Below are positions 1 to 51,670 of a DNA stretch of 64,000 nt, in pieces. The position numbers and the translations under genes were made by a program. The notes beneath the pieces were generated by a model. The model ran no database searches. It had not been told where the DNA came from and saw nothing but the letters and a program-made list of their open reading frames with translations. The first letter of the stretch is position 1; each line of letters begins with the position of its first letter. This DNA is from Mollicutes bacterium (GTDB lineage Bacteria > Bacillota_I > Bacilli_A > RF39 > UBA660), in assembly GCA_012799635.1 (NCBI GenBank), contig JAAZKW010000010.1, positions 3,308-67,307 on the forward strand, written 5' to 3'.

Positions 1-174
1 AGGATAATCTTTTCTTTTTATTAAAAGCACACTAAAATGTTTATCTTTTAATTTACGATAATTTTTCTGATCACCATCTGATACACTAAATATTATAATA
101 TCTGAAGTCATTGATAACTTTTCAAATTCATCAGGATTATAGTTTTTTAAAAACTCTTCTTCACTTTTATACAT
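1..174 (-). CDS. NrtR-like Nudix-related regulator / ADP-ribose pyrophosphatase family protein; only the N-terminal 58 codons are present because the gene runs off the left edge
   Basis: ATG at 172-174 (reverse complement) is preceded by AAGGAGG. The translation is MYKSEEEFLKNYNPDEFEKLSMTSDIIIFSVSDGDQKNYRKLKDKHFSVLLIKRKDYP. The pattern 'LxNYxPxxFxxxxxTxDxxxF' is typical of NrtR-family N-termini. The gene lies at the 3' end of the NAD operon. Confidence 0.45.
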   Translation of the reverse strand, partial: MYKSEEEFLKNYNPDEFEKLSMTSDIIIFSVSDGDQKNYRKLKDKHFSVLLIKRKDYP

Positions 175-43392: not shown

Positions 43393-43624
43393 CCCTTAAC
43401 TCCTATTATAAATATGATATCATATTTTCTTTGAAAATTGAATAACAACCTTCTTATAACTGCTTTAAACAATATTATTATTTTAATTTCGTTATAATTT
43501 TAAAAACAGATGGCCCCATTTCTCAACTGATATTGGTTTTGTCTAACCCTTCCTATTTATATAAAGATTTTATTAATTGATTATACAATAATAAAATGAA
43601 ATTTTGCGTAATTCCATTTTATTT

Positions 43625-43977
43625 TTATTTCTTTCCCAAAATTCTCTTGCTCTCTGGATCTGGCATAGTTATTTTATCAATTGTTATACTTTTAGCAATC
43701 TCTATTGCTGTTTCTAATGCCATAAAGATTGTTCCTTTTTGTTCATCTGTAACTAATCCTTTTTTACGATATAGTTTACCAGCAAAGTCATCAACTAAAT
43801 TATATTCTAGACCTAGATAAGTTTAAAATTTCATCTTTCAATTCTTTTCTATCTATTACCTTTAACATCTCTAGCATAGCTTTCCTTCGTAATTAAAGGT
43901 GGCTCACTTGGCATTCCAATTAATATTAAATTTTTTTGAGCAACATATTCATTAAAAGTCATATCTCCTTCTTCCAT
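43625..43977 (-). pseudogene. Fragmented ORF of unknown function (possible pseudogene)
   Basis: ATG at 43977 follows a GGAG-type RBS. The coding signal passes through three frames: MEEGDMTFNEYVAQKNLILIGMPSEPPLITKESYARDVKGNR*, then ...KELKDEILNLSRSRI*, then ...LEYNLVDDFAGKLYRKKGLVTDEQKGTIFMALETAIEIAKSITIDKITMPDPESKRILGKK*. Confidence 0.35.
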
Positions 43978-43995
43978 TCGCAAAAAAGAACCATC

Positions 43996-44322
43996 TTAAG
44001 TATGACATACATACTTAATACTATTAATTTCCATATTATTAATTAAAGTTCTATAATCTGAATTATCCCCATATTTTACTTTAACTTGATCAAGACTCAA
44101 TCTTTCTCCAAAAAAAATCCAATTAGAAACATTTGTCCTTTCACCATAATAAGTTTTTTCTCCATCAATAACCTCTTCTCTATCAAAGAAACGAAAACCT
44201 TGCATTTTACCATCATTATCAATTTTTGTTGGATCTCTTTCCACTACTTCTTCAATTACAGGTTCACTAACAATTATACCCCAATAAATTTTCTCAACAT
44301 AACTTTTATTCAATTTTTCCAT
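43996..44322 (-). CDS. Hypothetical protein
   Basis: 108 aa with AAAGGAG before the ATG. No motif was recognised. Confidence 0.55.
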   Translation of the reverse strand: MEKLNKSYVEKIYWGIIVSEPVIEEVVERDPTKIDNDGKMQGFRFFDREEVIDGEKTYYGERTNVSNWIFFGERLSLDQVKVKYGDNSDYRTLINNMEINSIKYVCHT

Positions 44323-44516
44323 CGTTTGACTCCTTTCAATTAATTAACATATATTATATATATATATTTAAAATTTTGTCAATTTAAATAAAAAATGTTA
44401 ATTTAAATCTGAAATGCAACATTTAATTCATCCAACTTATATTCAATTTTAACCTCCTTAATATAAATCTAACCAATTTACTCATTAGTAGCCTTCTTTA
44501 TTTTAAACTTGTATTA

Positions 44517-44540
44517 TAAAAAAAGAGAGTCGAAACTCTC
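44517..44540 (-). terminator. Rho-independent terminator downstream of the 240-aa hypothetical gene
   Basis: On the minus strand, GAGAGTttcgACTCTC is followed by a T7 run. Confidence 0.6.
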
Positions 44541-44638
44541 ATATATATAAATATTAAAACTTTTTTTGCTATTTTCCTTATTTCATAAGGATTTAAAATA
44601 ATCATTATTAATAATAAAATTAAAACTTTATACTTATT

Positions 44639-45349
44639 TTAATTAATAACTTTCTTTCTTTTCCTTGAGGTTTGGTAATCTTCAAGAGGTTTAGAAAGTA
44701 TATTATCTTTTCCAGTATAGTCTGATTTTATTTTTAATCCACATCTTTGACACATTATTTCCCAATATCTTGGATGGTGACAATAATAAACACCACGATC
44801 ATCATCGTAATAATTTATTATTGTAACTGAATTATCAATTTCTTTTATTTCATCCTCAGGAACTCTTATCAAACGATAGCAAAGCTCCCATGGCAAAAAG
44901 TCGTGTCCTTCTTCCTGACATTTAGAAATAGGACTGATTTCTTCTTTAAGTTCTTTATATTCTTGCATAGCTTCTAACACCATATTATAAGCTCTTATTC
45001 TACTCTGTTTTAAATTCATACCAATAACTTCTGCATAATCATTTTCAATTCTTTCAATTATATGTACCATTTCTTTTTCAAGAGCAGAAATTTTCTCTTC
45101 AAAAGATCCTATAATATTAACATCTAATTTACGATTGTCTGCTTTAAACTCAGCAAGTTTAGTTTTATAAAAATTAATATCTTTCTGCAACTTAGTTAGT
45201 TTATCCATATATACGTTTTCTTCCGCTATACACGTTCTTCCTTCAATTTCCATCTTGGAAAATTTTTCTAATATAAAGGCAATTAACTTATCAAACAACT
45301 CTTTTTCATCTACACCATCTAAAATTTCAAAAATTTCTTTTATATTCAT
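44639..45349 (-). CDS. Hypothetical coiled-coil protein with a C-terminal Cys/His cluster
   Basis: The track ORF starts at 45361, but its first four codons are the GGAGG RBS, so the ATG at 45349 (MNIKEIFEIL) is the likely start. The C-terminus has C..H ... C ... CHH ... CxxC spacing suggestive of a zinc-binding module. Confidence 0.6.
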   Translation of the reverse strand: MNIKEIFEILDGVDEKELFDKLIAFILEKFSKMEIEGRTCIAEENVYMDKLTKLQKDINFYKTKLAEFKADNRKLDVNIIGSFEEKISALEKEMVHIIERIENDYAEVIGMNLKQSRIRAYNMVLEAMQEYKELKEEISPISKCQEEGHDFLPWELCYRLIRVPEDEIKEIDNSVTIINYYDDDRGVYYCHHPRYWEIMCQRCGLKIKSDYTGKDNILSKPLEDYQTSRKRKKVIN

Positions 45350-45437
45350 CTTTACCTCCACTTACATTTTAGCATTGGTAATTCTATGAGTCAAACTTTT
45401 ACAAAAATTTGACAGTGTAATAGTTTTGCAACATCAT

Positions 45438-46295
45438 TTAATCTTTTTTCTTTAAATAATCTATTACATTTATAGCAGCAAAAGTTCCATCGCTAACCGC
45501 AGTTGTTATTTGTCTTACATCTTTTTCCAAAATATCACCTGCTACAAATATATTATCTATTTTATTTTCTTTAATAAATCCATATTTATTTAAATGCTTT
45601 TTATCTACTAAATTAGATGATGGATCACTACCAATACTTAAAAATATCCCATCTACTTTAATGGCATCATGATTATCTAAGTGTATATTAATATCATCTG
45701 TTAATTTAGTGACTTTATTATTATAAATGACTTCAATATTTCCTTTTTTTAACACTTCTTCTACTCTAATTTTTTCACCATTTAGTTTATCTATGCATTG
45801 AATAATATAAACCTTCTTACATATATTAGATAATTCTAAAGCATTAATAACACCACTATTGCCACCACCTATAACCGCTACTGTTTTATTTTTATAAAAA
45901 GCACCATCACAAGCTACACAATAATGAATTTTTTCATTCTTATATTTATCTTCACCCGGAACATTTAATCTTCTTTGTAATAAACCACTTGCCATTACTA
46001 TTGCCTTAGTTTTATAAGTCATAGTATTAGTTATAACACTATCTTTAGTAACTTTTATAACTTCTTCTAAATCAACATCTCCACCTAAATTTAATACTTG
46101 TTCTAACATCTTACTTGCTAGTTCACCACCGCTAATACTAACATATCCTGGATAATTTTCTATTTTGGGACTAAATGCCATTTGACCACCAATTTTATTT
46201 TTTTCCAATACTAATACTTTATATCCAGCACGAAGCAAATATATAGCAGAAGTAAGGCCCGAAGGCCCTGCTCCGATTACTACTACATCATACAT
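45438..46295 (-). CDS. trxB: Thioredoxin-disulfide reductase-like flavoprotein
   Basis: 285 aa with the FAD motif VVVIGAGPSGLTSA, the redox-active CVACDG and the NAD(P)H motif VIGGGNSG. Its start lies 1 nt after the nrdD stop. Confidence 0.8.
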   Translation of the reverse strand: MYDVVVIGAGPSGLTSAIYLLRAGYKVLVLEKNKIGGQMAFSPKIENYPGYVSISGGELASKMLEQVLNLGGDVDLEEVIKVTKDSVITNTMTYKTKAIVMASGLLQRRLNVPGEDKYKNEKIHYCVACDGAFYKNKTVAVIGGGNSGVINALELSNICKKVYIIQCIDKLNGEKIRVEEVLKKGNIEVIYNNKVTKLTDDINIHLDNHDAIKVDGIFLSIGSDPSSNLVDKKHLNKYGFIKENKIDNIFVAGDILEKDVRQITTAVSDGTFAAINVIDYLKKKD

Positions 46296-46296
46296 A

Positions 46297-48657
46297 TTAA
46301 TAATTCTCTGTAAATAGTTTTATATTAGATGCATTTTTATGTAAAGTGATTTCGCCATCTTTAATTACTACTAAAGTAGGAGCCTCTGTTACATTCATAT
46401 CTTTAGTTTTCTCTATTTCTTTTTCAGCATCTACCCATTTGTATTCTATTTTCTTTTTTTCTAAAAAGTTTTTAGCTAAAGTACAGTTCGGACATTTTTC
46501 TGTTCCAAATAACATGATTTGATCTTTCCTTCTAGTTTTTTTTGTTTCATTTGCTTTTTCTTTTATATCTTTTTTATTAAGCTTTGACTTTTTCAAATCA
46601 TATTCTTTTCTTTCCCTATACTCTTCAGTTTTTCCAATATTCCAGTTTTTAACCGGTCTATAATAACCTGTTATTCTACTATAAACTTCCATTTCTTCAC
46701 CACATTTTGGGCACTCTTTTATTTCGCCTGAAAAGTATCCATGATTTTGGCAAACCGAATATGTAGGAGATAAAGTATAATATGGTAATTTATAATTATC
46801 ACTAATAGTTTTAACAAGTTCTGCTGCACTCTTCCAATCTGTAACTCTCTCTCCTAAAAAAGCGTGAAATACAGTTCCTGAAGTATATAAAGTTTGTAAT
46901 TCATCTTGAATATCTAAAGCTACAAAAATGTCTTCAGTAAATCCAACTGGTAAATGTGAAGAATTTGTATAATAAGGTTTATCATCACATTCACTTGCTG
47001 TTATTATATCCGCATACTTTTCTTTATCATGTTTAGCAAATCTATAAGTTGTAGATTCGGCTGGCGTTGCTTCAAGATTATATAAGTCTCCAAATTCTTC
47101 TTGGTAATCACTTAATTTTTCTCTCATAAATGTCAAGACTTCTTTAGTAAATTTTTGAGTTTCAGGATGTGTTAAATCTTTTTGTAACCAGTTAGCATTT
47201 AAACCAACTTCATTCATACCTATTAATCCAATGGTACTAAAATGATTATCGAAAGTTCCTAAATATTTTTTAGTATAAGGATATAAACCCTCATTTAATA
47301 ATTTAGCAAGAACATTCCTTTTTACTTTTAAACTTCTAGCACTAATATTCATTAATTTTTCTAATCTTTTATAAAAATCTTTTTCATTTTCTGCTAAATA
47401 TGCAATTCTTGGCATATTAATTGTAACCACGCCTATTGAACCAGTTGATTCTCCTGAACCGAAAAATCCACCTGATTTCTTTCTAAGTTCACGTAAATCC
47501 AAACGCAATCTACAACACATACTTCTTACATCACTCGGCTCCATATCACTGTTAACATAATTTGAGAAATACGGTGTACCATATTTAGCAGTCATTTCAA
47601 ATAATAACTTATTGTTTTCTGTTTCACCCCAATCAAAATCTTTAGTAATTGAATAAGTTGGAATTGGATATTGAAAACCTCTACCGTTTGCATCTCCTTC
47701 AATCATTATTTCAATAAATGCTTTATTAATCATATCCATTTCTTTTTGAACATCTTTATATTTAAAGTCTACTTGTTTACCACCAACATAACAATCAATC
47801 TCAGCTAAATCATTTGGTACTTTCCAATCTAATGTAATATTAGTAAATGGTGCTTGTGTTCCCCATCTAGATGGAGTATTAACACCATATACAAATGATT
47901 GAACACATTGTTTTACTTCTTTATAATTTAAATTGTCTATTCTAACAAAAGGTGCTAAATAAGTATCAAAACTTGAAAACGCTTGAGCACCGGCCCATTC
48001 ATTTTGCATAATACCTAGAAAATTAACCATTTGATTACACAATGTAGATAGGTGTTTCGCTGGGCTAGAAGTTATTTTACCAGGAACTCCACCTAGACCC
48101 TCCATAATTAATTGTTTTAAACTCCAGCCAGCACAATATCCTGTTAACATTGATAAATCATGAATGTGAATTGCTGCACTTCTATGAGCATCAGCCACTT
48201 CAGGATCATATACTTCACTTAACCAATAGTTAGCAGTAATTGCACCCGAATTACTTAAAATAAGACCCCCCACCGAGTATGTAACAGTTGAATTTTCCTT
48301 TACTCTCCAATCGGTTACATTTACATAACTATTTACAACTTCTTTATAGTCAAGCAAAGTATTTTCAACATTACGTACCTTTTCACGATTCTTTCTATAC
48401 AAAATATATGCTTTAGCTACATTAGTATAGCCTGCTTTACTTAATACTTCTTCAACACTGTCTTGTACATCTTCTACACCAATGATATTATCCTTAATTT
48501 TAGGTTCAAAATCAGCGGTAACTTTAAGAGCTAAAAAATCAAGCACATCCTCACTATATTTTATTTCTGTTGCATCAAAAGCCTTTCTCATTGCATTTTT
48601 AATTTTTTCAATTTCAAAAGCAACTATTTTATTATTTCTTTTTCTTATTTTATACAT
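46297..48657 (-). CDS. nrdD: Anaerobic (class III) ribonucleoside-triphosphate reductase fused to a C-terminal glutaredoxin/NrdH-like domain
   Basis: 786 aa with an N-terminal ATP-cone, a Zn site (CQNHG...CPKCG) and the glycyl-radical motif SRITGYY. About 100 extra residues follow and contain MLFGTEKCPNCTLAKNFL...APTLVV (thioredoxin fold, CPxC). Confidence 0.9.
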   Translation of the reverse strand: MYKIRKRNNKIVAFEIEKIKNAMRKAFDATEIKYSEDVLDFLALKVTADFEPKIKDNIIGVEDVQDSVEEVLSKAGYTNVAKAYILYRKNREKVRNVENTLLDYKEVVNSYVNVTDWRVKENSTVTYSVGGLILSNSGAITANYWLSEVYDPEVADAHRSAAIHIHDLSMLTGYCAGWSLKQLIMEGLGGVPGKITSSPAKHLSTLCNQMVNFLGIMQNEWAGAQAFSSFDTYLAPFVRIDNLNYKEVKQCVQSFVYGVNTPSRWGTQAPFTNITLDWKVPNDLAEIDCYVGGKQVDFKYKDVQKEMDMINKAFIEIMIEGDANGRGFQYPIPTYSITKDFDWGETENNKLLFEMTAKYGTPYFSNYVNSDMEPSDVRSMCCRLRLDLRELRKKSGGFFGSGESTGSIGVVTINMPRIAYLAENEKDFYKRLEKLMNISARSLKVKRNVLAKLLNEGLYPYTKKYLGTFDNHFSTIGLIGMNEVGLNANWLQKDLTHPETQKFTKEVLTFMREKLSDYQEEFGDLYNLEATPAESTTYRFAKHDKEKYADIITASECDDKPYYTNSSHLPVGFTEDIFVALDIQDELQTLYTSGTVFHAFLGERVTDWKSAAELVKTISDNYKLPYYTLSPTYSVCQNHGYFSGEIKECPKCGEEMEVYSRITGYYRPVKNWNIGKTEEYRERKEYDLKKSKLNKKDIKEKANETKKTRRKDQIMLFGTEKCPNCTLAKNFLEKKKIEYKWVDAEKEIEKTKDMNVTEAPTLVVIKDGEITLHKNASNIKLFTENY

Positions 48658-49390
48658 TTTTTCTTCCTCCCTTTTCTGTATAACCTCTTATTTCAAAGTG
48701 ATCATAACTTTCTTTATAACTATAAAGTAAATTTAAGTCTTCAACAGTAAAACTTGTTAAACCACTTTTAATAACCGTATCTCTATCTTCAAAGTTTTGA
48801 AGATAATATTTACTCCCCTGAGTAAAATCTATTAATTTTCTTATATCTTCTAAAGTATGATATTCTTTTATAATAGTGGTTCTAAATTCATAATCAACTT
48901 TTCCTTTTTTTAAAATATCAATACTTTTTTTAACATTATCTATATTAACTTTGGCATTAGCTGTTTGATTATATTTTTCAAAAACATTTTTAATATCCAT
49001 GGCTACATAATCAACTAACTTTAATTCTATTAATTCTTGTAATAATTTTGGATTAGAACCATTAGTATCTAACTTCACTTTATAACCAATTTCTTTAATT
49101 TTAATTATAAAATCTAATAATCCTTTTTGAATAGTAGGCTCCCCGCCACTAATTACTACTCCTTGTAAAATGTTCTTTCTTTTTTCTAAATAAGCAAATA
49201 TTTCATTATGATCTATTAAAGGAACTTCCACATCTAATACTAAACTAGAATTTTGACAGTACCTACACCCAAAATTGCACCCTTTAGTAAACAATACACA
49301 TGCAAGCTTACCAGGATAATCAAGAAGGGTTAACTTATTAAAACCTGCTATTTTAGGCATCAAATCCCCCATTAAAATATTCACTAGCAA
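48650..49390 (-). CDS. nrdG: Anaerobic ribonucleotide reductase activating protein (radical SAM)
   Basis: Contains the motif CNFGCRYCQN. The likely start is the ATG at 49360 (MPKIAGF) after GGGGA. It overlaps nrdD by 8 nt. Confidence 0.9.
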   Translation of the reverse strand: MLVNILMGDLMPKIAGFNKLTLLDYPGKLACVLFTKGCNFGCRYCQNSSLVLDVEVPLIDHNEIFAYLEKRKNILQGVVISGGEPTIQKGLLDFIIKIKEIGYKVKLDTNGSNPKLLQELIELKLVDYVAMDIKNVFEKYNQTANAKVNIDNVKKSIDILKKGKVDYEFRTTIIKEYHTLEDIRKLIDFTQGSKYYLQNFEDRDTVIKSGLTSFTVEDLNLLYSYKESYDHFEIRGYTEKGGRKNV

Positions 49391-51050: not shown

Positions 51051-51074
51051 ATATCGCCTCCCACTAGTATTTCA

Positions 51075-51103
51075 ATCTTACTAAATTACCTCCTCTGTGT
51101 CAA
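51075..51103 (-). promoter_or_regulatory. Putative sigma-A promoter of the nrd operon
   Basis: On the minus strand, TTGACA (51098-51103), then 17 nt, then TAAGAT (51075-51080), about 25 nt upstream of the GGGAGG-ATG. Confidence 0.45.
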
Positions 51104-51670
51104 TGTTTTTTTAACAACTTTTTTTATTTTTCATTTTATTTACATTTTTAAAATTTAAAAATTTTTAAAAAAAACATTTCTTACAGAACTTATAATTATA
51201 AACATTTAAAATAACAAGATTATGAAGCGTTATATAATATATGACTTATTATAGATGATATTTAATCTATATCCATTATGCTACAATAAGCTTTTAAACC
51301 CCAATAAAATCGCGAATATGACGATAATTATTATTGTTCAATTACTAATACAATCTAATTTCATATATTCTTCCTAAATAACCAGTATTTAAAAATATAT
51401 AGTTGCAAATGTAAAATCAACTTGCTACTAACATATTATCATTTAGAATGAATTTTTCATATTATATATAACAGAAACACACAAAAAAGTTTTAAAAAAA
51501 ACAAAACTAAATAAATTGATCAAGATACAATTATAATATCATTAATAATGCCTAAAATTAGTTCTTTAATTCTAATATTTTTTTAAAAATATTTATTTTT
51601 GAACTTTTTTGTCTTTAAAATAAATTTATTTAATTTCAATTATTATACAACCTTCTTGCAATTGTCGTTG

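Follow-up and report, generated by a model that had tools for sequence, protein, structure and literature searches.

Class III ribonucleotide reductases (RNRs) divide into formate-using and thiol-using enzymes, and residues of the catalytic subunit NrdD help to tell the two apart: glutamate without methionine points to thioredoxin-only enzymes, and methionine together with a Cys-Cys pair and glutamate to enzymes compatible with formate or thioredoxin (Burnim et al., PMC9669993). In the account of the work of Wei et al. given in PMC4390871, it was the absence of formate metabolism that led to thioredoxin as reductant, and Glu438 of Neisseria bacilliformis NrdD, which corresponds to Glu495 of Thermotoga maritima, is the proposed proton-handling carboxylate. 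A redoxin fused to NrdD has a single mention in the literature that we searched, the entry 'Glutaredoxin:NrdD' for Lachnospiraceae bacterium TWA4, listed as NrdDd in Table S1 of Rozman Grinberg et al. 2018 (PMC6187632), and that search returned no biochemical study of an NrdD::redoxin fusion. Here we describe an operon in a 64-kb stretch of DNA from a Mollicutes bacterium (contig JAAZKW010000010.1; hereafter the window), in which a class III NrdD carries a C-terminal redoxin domain and is followed by the gene of a TrxB-like flavoprotein resembling thioredoxin reductase (TrxR). All coordinates are positions in the window, and the landmark codons were re-translated as a check. We propose, with a probability of about 0.68, that this operon, which encodes an apparently dead NrdD paralogue, the activase NrdG, NrdD::redoxin and the TrxR-like flavoprotein, carries its own reducing system in place of formate.

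The NrdD::redoxin fusion and its partner gene

The operon consists of four minus-strand open reading frames with successive spacings of -38, -8 and +1 nt (Table 1): the NrdG frame overlaps the upstream frame by 38 nt and the start of nrdD by 8 nt, and a gap follows nrdD. The 786-aa product is the catalytic subunit of a class III RNR. The Pfam model NRDD (PF13597) matches residues 121-686 over its full length (model positions 1-562 of 562, 637 bits), NCBIfam NF006126 gives 1121.7 bits against a cut-off of 548, the glycyl-radical motif RITGYY and a Zn ribbon are in place, and the NrdG gene lies directly upstream. Behind the glycyl-radical motif come a K/E-rich linker and a thioredoxin-fold domain with CPNC, as the preliminary description of this DNA had read them, the domain measuring 74 aa. 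That description had also put a TrxB-like gene with CVACDG 1 nt past the nrdD stop; the spacing is exactly 1 nt, because the junction (GAG AAT TAT TAA T ATG TAT GAT) reads TAA T ATG.

We then asked how real and how widespread the fusion is. In each of the 120 database homologues ranked best (77-90% identity; 773-804 aa, one of 950 aa), NRDD is followed by PF00462 and/or PF00085, and the identical 786-aa architecture is found, at 90% identity, on a 727-kb contig of a relative. In a sample of 400 genomes drawn evenly from the source class (the class sample), NrdD aligns through residues ∼765-786 in about 80 genomes of at least 10 families; in a sister clade (∼50% identity) of the same sample the alignment ends at ∼690. 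A scan of named genomes confirmed at least 589 stretches of the 600 listed, and the best 80 loci, which were analysed, are all fusions at 69-78% identity. Many of these 80 belong to Clostridia (Lachnospiraceae, Oscillospiraceae, Christensenellaceae and Acutalibacteraceae), and their cultured carriers include Anaerocolumna aminovalerica DSM 1283, Pseudoflavonifractor phocaeensis, Ruminococcus turbiniformis and a Lacrimispora sp. Searching a library of 1.84 billion representatives with residues 640-786 gave mostly metagenomic fragments, with the architecture present in many 50%-identity clusters. The arrangement had at first been taken as unusual; with ∼20% of the sampled class genomes and hundreds of Clostridia carrying it, it ranks among the frequent class III RNR designs of gut Bacillota. 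The window does come from a draft assembly (61 contigs, 1.15 Mb, 88.65% complete), and a frameshift, read-through of a separate redoxin gene or chimeric assembly could produce such a frame artificially. No positive support for this was found, and the same continuous frame recurs in hundreds of independent assemblies, cultured strains included, as well as at 90% identity on the 727-kb contig. We rejected an artefact, which the homologues, the class sample, the named-genome loci and that relative refute and to which we give practically no weight.

Across 233 family sequences the redoxin motif is CPNC in 229 and CPKC in the other four, and the linker is 12-70 aa long (median 26). As a separate observation, 38 of 115 fusion proteins have a linker with at least two cysteines, usually in a CxC or CC arrangement (CKCDDCKCDNCEC, CDCKC, CGC, CACC; loci L059, L061, L072, L075, L077, L082, L090 and L095 among them), and that of the window protein contains none. 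In these relatives the cysteine pairs might serve as a shuttle dithiol, comparable to the C-terminal cysteine pair of class I/II RNRs. Five library representatives matching the glycyl-radical and redoxin region (P0163, P0169, P0179, P0183 and P0184) are 1041-1608 aa long, which suggests larger fusions or insertions (inteins?) in this NrdD family.

AlphaFold2 modelling of the redoxin domain from an alignment of 35 such domains gave a model with a predicted local distance difference test (pLDDT) score of 96.0, the order beta-alpha-beta-alpha-beta-beta-alpha and CPNC preceding helix 14-25. The top Foldseek matches are thioredoxins (probability 1.00, template modelling scores of 0.7-0.8). The matches include Desulfovibrio vulgaris desulfothioredoxin, the TrxA chain of a Bacillus subtilis RNR complex and Bacillus cereus BC3987, which is able to reduce a class Ib RNR (PMC3720550). 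A profile of the 35 domains searched against PDB found glutaredoxin (Grx)-like proteins, protein disulfide oxidoreductases and thioredoxins with E-values down to 3e-10. By its modelled topology, the CxxC at the N-terminus of helix 1 and the cis-proline, the C-terminal domain is a predicted thioredoxin-fold dithiol redoxin, and the fold first ascribed to it is borne out by the structure prediction. Its closer family is less sharply marked. Pfam Glutaredoxin (PF00462) reaches 27.1 bits against a cut-off of 22.9, covering 41 of 60 model positions, the NCBIfam Grx equivalogs give 16-27 bits with cut-offs of at least 72, and the nearest NCBIfam model, of the YruB/Cp9 type, gives 27 bits against 88.55, a score so far under the cut-off that it denotes resemblance and not membership. 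The original label 'NrdH-like' was dropped. NrdH proteins are recognized by C-[VMI]-Q-C and by belonging to a class Ib operon, nrdHIEF (PMC3720550); the domain has CPNC instead, no NrdH model is among its NCBIfam matches at E <= 0.01, and no class I RNR was found in the genome. In a full-length AlphaFold2 model (mean pLDDT 71.5) the active-site loops are of low confidence and linker residues 696-709 fall below 50, and the redoxin domain stays folded.

The partner gene was examined next. Directly downstream, and on the same strand, a TrxB-like gene was found at 31 of 35 fusion loci of the first set and at 57 of the 80 named-genome loci, that is 88 of 115, in Bacilli and Clostridia, and the commonest order is NrdG, NrdD::redoxin, TrxB-like. 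Each of the 17 non-fusion genomes of the source genus has one TrxB homologue, and the genomes with a fully assembled fusion operon (G000, the source assembly, G002 and G003) have two or three. We concluded that the nrd-linked TrxB-like gene is a conserved, extra-copy partner. The pair could also form a general second thiol-disulfide system (e.g., for oxidative stress, as Cp34/Cp9 with peroxiredoxin) that merely travels with nrdD, while NrdD is served by housekeeping TrxA and TrxB. A second TrxB does occur in the genome, along with a canonical TrxA that has WCGPC, the nearest domain models are of the Cp9/YruB type, whose characterized partner is a peroxiredoxin, and in four sister genomes (G012, G018, G019 and G021) the sole TrxB is closer to the nrd-linked type (43-45% identical) and lies away from nrd genes. 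Such a role makes it hard to explain why hundreds of species retain a covalent fusion whose CPNC is invariant; moreover, the operon has no peroxiredoxin gene, and among the genomes of the genus the extra TrxB occurs in those with a fully assembled fusion operon and is absent from the non-fusion ones. We consider a general system improbable.

Active-site residues, formate and the proposed mechanism

The active site was compared with the formate and thioredoxin types by alignment. Cys175, the Met-Cys-Cys-Arg finger loop and Glu529 align with their T. maritima counterparts (Table 1), and formate-dependent Prevotella copri NrdD has leucine at the Glu529 position. The 38 fusion proteins compared, from two classes, show no variation at C175, M380, C381, C382, R383, E529, the Zn ligands and G664, nor at C722, P723, C725 and P760 of the redoxin domain. 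Two of the three sequence marks of a redoxin-type NrdD are thus present (the Cys pair with the beta-A Cys, and Glu) and the third, absence of Met, is not, the loop reading MCCR. The sorting of the enzyme into one type succeeded in part: Cys175, the double Cys and Glu529 are of the redoxin type, whereas the retained Met380 is compatible with formate. As aligned, these residues would permit a redoxin route and leave formate use possible.

We then searched the source assembly for a formate route and for other RNRs. At 88.65% completeness, it yielded no class I/II RNR, no pyruvate formate-lyase (PFL)-like enzyme, no FNT formate channel and no pyruvate:ferredoxin oxidoreductase (PFOR; searched as POR_N), and its only two NRDD matches are both in the operon. 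Comparison across genomes was made at three levels, with counts that ignore phylogeny at each of them. Within the source genus, PFL is present in 0/5 fusion genomes and in 9/10 genomes with an MGCR-type NrdD (Fisher p = 0.002); the NrdD proteins of these 10 sister genomes are ∼720 aa long, 26-33% identical and without the Glu, i.e., of the formate type. Of the source family, the class sample contained 8 fusion genomes, all without PFL, and 25 non-fusion genomes that have it. The class sample as a whole gave 17/80 fusion and 153/321 non-fusion genomes with PFL (p = 1.4e-5). The within-genus contrast is the strongest part of the pattern, and its reasoning, from missing formate metabolism, is that of Wei et al. 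as told in PMC4390871. The fusion system probably lets the enzyme work without formate. For the source genome, in which PFL, PFOR and FNT were not found, the searches made leave pyruvate turnover and the reductant of the NrdG Fe-S cluster unexplained.

From the observed architecture, fold, residues, gene pairing and PFL anticorrelation we infer all electron-transfer steps, and the access of the tethered domain to the active site, as follows. NrdG would install the radical on Gly664. Each turnover would leave a disulfide between Cys175 and Cys381 (or Cys382), with Glu529 in the proton-handling role put forward for its counterpart in N. bacilliformis NrdD. The tethered CPNC domain would re-reduce this disulfide by dithiol exchange, and would do so directly, because the window linker has no Cys. 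The flavoprotein would in turn re-reduce the redoxin domain via FAD and its CVAC disulfide, and the module would thereby stand in for formate in an organism with no detected PFL or other RNR. A hard-wired path from NADPH through TrxB and the tethered redoxin to NrdD had been suggested from the outset; the fold, the redoxin-type residues, the conserved gene pairing and the scarcity of PFL favor its stretch from TrxB to NrdD; the altered NADPH motifs speak against its first step, and the retained Met380 leaves formate use possible.

Several points weigh against a reducing system that replaces formate. Met380, a residue of the formate mechanism, is retained, and PMC9669993 credits enzymes of this kind with the use of formate or thioredoxin; a PFL-like enzyme does occur in 17 of the 80 fusion genomes; and 27 of the 115 fusion loci are without an adjacent TrxB-like gene. 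The absences in the source assembly are no proof because of its incompleteness, and the PFL counts are blind to phylogeny. The full-length model is of too moderate confidence (pLDDT 71.5) to inform docking of the redoxin domain, and even for characterized enzymes it is a puzzle how any redoxin gets to a class III active site that the glycyl-radical domain plugs (PMC4493059).

Some of the same observations fit an accessory role, in which formate, imported or produced along a route that escaped detection, is the turnover reductant via Cys175-Met380, and the redoxin and the reductase only keep the enzyme activatable (by reducing adventitious disulfides, e.g., of the Zn ribbon) or repair cysteines after oxygen exposure. 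Enzymes with the methionine, here invariant, keep the needs of formate chemistry (PMC9669993), PFL is present in 17 of the fusion genomes, the redoxin domain is tethered directly behind the Zn-ribbon/glycyl-radical domain, and an activating role of thioredoxin is known for the Escherichia coli enzyme (PMC4390871). A pure formate enzyme would, however, have no need of the invariant Glu529 and the second finger-loop Cys, and the sister formate type is MGCR without Glu. In addition, neither PFL nor an FNT channel was found in the source assembly, and the either/or relation with PFL within the genus fits replacement of the reductant rather than an accessory role. We regard turnover on formate as unlikely, though deserving of serious consideration, and prefer reduction by the tethered redoxin.

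The TrxB-like flavoprotein and its electron donor

NADPH-type thioredoxin reductases (NTRs) are defined by the NAD(P)H motifs GxGxxA and HRRxxxR (PMC10880999). The window flavoprotein has the FAD motif GxGxxG and the CxxC of TrxR and aligns end to end with TrxRs of PDB (7aaw, 187 bits), and it reads GGGNSG for GxGxxA and QCIDKLN for HRRxxxR, the 2'-phosphate site. On TIGR01292 (thioredoxin-disulfide reductase) it scores 255.6 bits, under the cut-off of 343.45. A canonical NADPH-type NTR was rejected on these grounds, neither motif being matched and the model score lying below the cut-off. The protein is under constraint and not decaying, because its closest relative, 81% identical, aligns without indels and reads QDIDKLT.

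The same loss runs through the family. Among the 88 nrd-linked reductases (loci L011-L046 and L059-L138), HRRxxxR is absent in 73, the window protein included, and present in 15. At its place about 40 read a QNLxxLT-like motif and about 22 a TLFDKFF-like one, the remainder having other sequences (QCIDKLN, VRKDKMR and YRGKDLR included). The glycine motif is mostly kept in all of these groups but the TLFDKFF-like one, in which most proteins have GD(A/G)N(T/S)A. The window protein and its relatives score 187-242 bits against NADPH-type TrxRs (7aaw, 4gcm) vs 91-133 bits against 6gna-6gnd, which are flavin thioredoxin reductases dependent on ferredoxin (FFTRs); for the window protein alone, the figures are 187 bits for NTR-type structures and 91-107 bits for 6gna, 6gnc and 6gnd. 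Because the scores are nearer to the NADPH-type enzymes, the nrd-linked reductases appear to be TrxR derivatives minus the 2'-phosphate site that stand outside the known FFTR clade.

With QCIDKLN and GGGNSG at the two NADPH positions, the assumption that NADPH feeds the flavoprotein could not be upheld, and the donor is probably another. NADH is our first guess, on account of the preserved GxGxxG motif and the missing 2'-phosphate arginines; failing that, the donor would be a low-potential carrier. In the source assembly, an RnfC-like protein is present, and a weak test (tblastn with two queries and a CxxCxxCxxxCP pattern) gave three larger Fe-S proteins only, with neither a flavodoxin nor a small ferredoxin among the matches. 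Tentatively, and with doubt outweighing confidence, the nrd-linked flavoproteins might form a separate lineage of RNR-dedicated disulfide reductases that arose from NADPH-type TrxRs of Bacillota, independently of the clostridial and cyanobacterial FFTRs, and whose NADPH binding disappeared along two routes (to QNLxxLT with the glycine motif, and to TLFDKFF with GD(A/G)N(T/S)A). If so, many gut Firmicutes would make their DNA precursors at the expense of NADH or a low-potential carrier and not of NADPH or formate.

Two further genes of the source genome are recorded here. A separate TrxB (C50:16069-16956), presumed to be the housekeeping enzyme, has CATCDG, GSGNSA and a weakened NADPH motif, HRGVEFK, and the WCGPC TrxA gene (C34:15348-15647) lies ∼2 kb from that of an RnfC-like Fe-S flavoprotein (C34:17500-18654).

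Operon context and comparison with known systems

The coordinates of the operon genes and of the landmarks discussed above are collected in Table 1.

Table 1. Genes, domains and motifs of the nrd operon in the window.
Feature	Residues	Position	Strand	Evidence or remark
Gene 1, NrdD paralogue with ATP-cone	565 aa	49353-51050	minus	Pfam
Gene 2, NrdG, radical-SAM activase of class III RNR		48650-49390	minus	TIGR02495 (NrdG2), 212.4 bits, cut-off 131
Gene 3, NrdD::redoxin	786 aa	46297-48657	minus	Pfam, NCBIfam
Gene 4, TrxB-like flavoprotein	285 aa	45438-46295	minus	Pyr_redox_2
NrdD proper: ATP-cone, and catalytic barrel with C-terminal glycyl-radical domain	3-92, 121-686	46600-48651	minus	Pfam/NCBIfam; PDB relatives 8p23, 4coi, 4u3e
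Beta-A Cys	Cys175	48133-48135	minus	HMMER alignment to 4coi: Tyr174-Cys175 on T. maritima Tyr124-Cys125
Finger loop Met-Cys-Cys-Arg	380-383	47509-47520	minus	Aligns with T. maritima SCCR 328-331 (C329-C330); Met kept
Glu in NLEATPAE	Glu529	47071-47073	minus	Aligns with NIEQVPAE, T. maritima Glu495
Zn ribbon and glycyl-radical motif RITGYY	C636/H639/C649/C652; 661-666 (Gly664)	46660-46752	minus	
Linker LKKSKLNKKDIKEKANETKKTRRKD	688-712 (25 aa)	46522-46596	minus	K/E-rich, no Cys, predicted flexible
Tethered thioredoxin-fold redoxin domain	713-786 (74 aa)	46300-46521	minus	CPNC 722-725 at 46483-46494; APTL 759-762, cis-Pro Pro760
TrxB-like, FAD motif GAGPSG	8-13		minus	
TrxB-like, CVACDG	126-131	45909-45920 (CVAC)	minus	
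TrxB-like, GGGNSG		45852-45869	minus	
TrxB-like, QCIDKLN		45780-45800	minus	

The first gene of the operon encodes an NrdD paralogue with an intact-looking ATP-cone at residues 9-99 and a match to NRDD model positions 6-438 of 562 at 88.6 bits (Pfam). With neither the beta-A Cys nor the Cys pair of the finger loop, and with no Glu, Zn ribbon or glycyl-radical motif, it looks catalytically dead, and it may be a regulatory pseudo-enzyme. Several genera of the source family have such a paralogue immediately before nrdG, on its upstream side (L047-L054, L057 and L058); it has 616-657 aa and is ∼37-40% identical in other genera and in distant members of the source genus, and has 564-565 aa here and in the closest relatives. 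A search for NrdR boxes (CACWATATWTWGTG, up to two mismatches) gave 12 matches vs 7.3 expected, none of them in the upstream region 51051-51670. Scanning the operon for promoters and terminators was weakly informative, with promoter-like sites fewer than in shuffled sequences and no internal minus-strand terminator.

In the regions compared (window positions 43393-45437 and 51051-51670, and loci L139-L141 and L143), gene order shared with three sister genomes (G019, G002 and G004) breaks right after ezrA, and orphan genes stand beside the operon. The relative at 90% identity has its copy of the four-gene operon flanked by a metallophosphatase gene and ruvAB, and in G002 the operon is 33 kb from ezrA. 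The operon has moved or been separately acquired, because its flanks differ among relatives, transfer and rearrangement not being separable. Other variants of the activase were seen elsewhere. At three fusion loci without a downstream TrxB-like gene (L010, L026 and L036) NrdG has 377-386 aa; the extra N-terminal ∼150 residues of one of them (L010:336-1496) are a MarR-type winged helix, i.e., a fusion of transcription factor and activase. In another family, two loci (L055:2874-5600 and L056:1607-4366) have a second class III RNR of 908-919 aa with the layout ATP-cone-NrdD::NrdG beside the NrdD::redoxin gene; one of the two genomes (G036) also has PFL, and the other is not among the PFL-positives.

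Class III RNR is the sole route to deoxynucleotides in the source organism and in many strict gut anaerobes, and its reductant links DNA synthesis to fermentation. Because most partner reductases have lost the NADPH motif, the source of these electrons is in question. The compact set of NrdG, NrdD::redoxin and one flavoprotein is a convenient one for asking how a redoxin reaches the class III active site, the question left open in PMC4493059, and the either/or relation with PFL within a genus is a natural experiment in support of the formate-vs-thiol split of class III RNRs.

Next, we compared the system with those already described. The NrdDs of N. bacilliformis and T. maritima (Wei et al. 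2014, as related in PMC9669993, PMC4390871 and PMC4493059) likewise have the beta-A Cys, the double-Cys loop and the Glu, in hosts described there as lacking formate metabolism, and a thioredoxin-fold protein with a flavoprotein reductase turns the active-site disulfide back into thiols, as proposed here from sequence. In those accounts, the thioredoxin is free, the loop is SCCR without Met and the enzymes belong to another NrdD subgroup (T. maritima scores 139 bits). In the window system, by contrast, the redoxin is tethered, Met380 is kept and the reductase is encoded in the operon and is without the NADPH motif.

A redoxin fused to an RNR subunit is also found in the Grx::ATP-cone::NrdB protein of Facklamia ignava, whose Grx domain is an efficient RNR reductant (PMC6187632). 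That enzyme is of class I with an N-terminal, glutathione-linked Grx, whereas the window domain is C-terminal and paired with a TrxR-like gene, not with glutathione. The 'Glutaredoxin:NrdD' of strain TWA4 was listed in the same survey for a single organism; the present family spans hundreds of species, and its frequency corrects the impression of rarity that the 2018 list conveys. In Clostridium pasteurianum, Cp34/Cp9 (Reynolds et al. 2002, as summarized in PMC3720550) combine a CPxC Grx-like redoxin with a dedicated, operon-encoded, NADH-dependent TrxR-like flavoprotein. As that summary has it, Cp9 is a free protein serving a peroxiredoxin, with typically CP[YW]C, unlike the CPNC domain of the window.

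The FFTRs of Clostridia and cyanobacteria (PMC10880999, PMC8154056; 6gna-6gnd) share with the window flavoprotein the TrxR fold, FAD, the CxxC and the lack of HRRxxxR, and many of its nrd-linked relatives resemble them further in having GD(A/G)N(T/S)A for GxGxxA. The window protein differs from FFTRs in that it keeps GGGNSG and scores nearer to NADPH-type TrxRs, and no PFOR was found in the source assembly. NrdD3 of Methanosarcina barkeri, reportedly described by Wei and coworkers in 2015, is said to be served by an operon-encoded NrdH-like redoxin, unfused, and a ferredoxin:disulfide reductase, an NADPH-independent Fe-S enzyme. Its loop is QCCR, with neither Met nor Glu (PMC9669993), unlike the MCCR and Glu529 of the window enzyme. 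We concluded that the principle and the architecture are already on record, and that the scale of the family, the conserved reductase without an NADPH motif and the either/or relation with PFL seem to be new.

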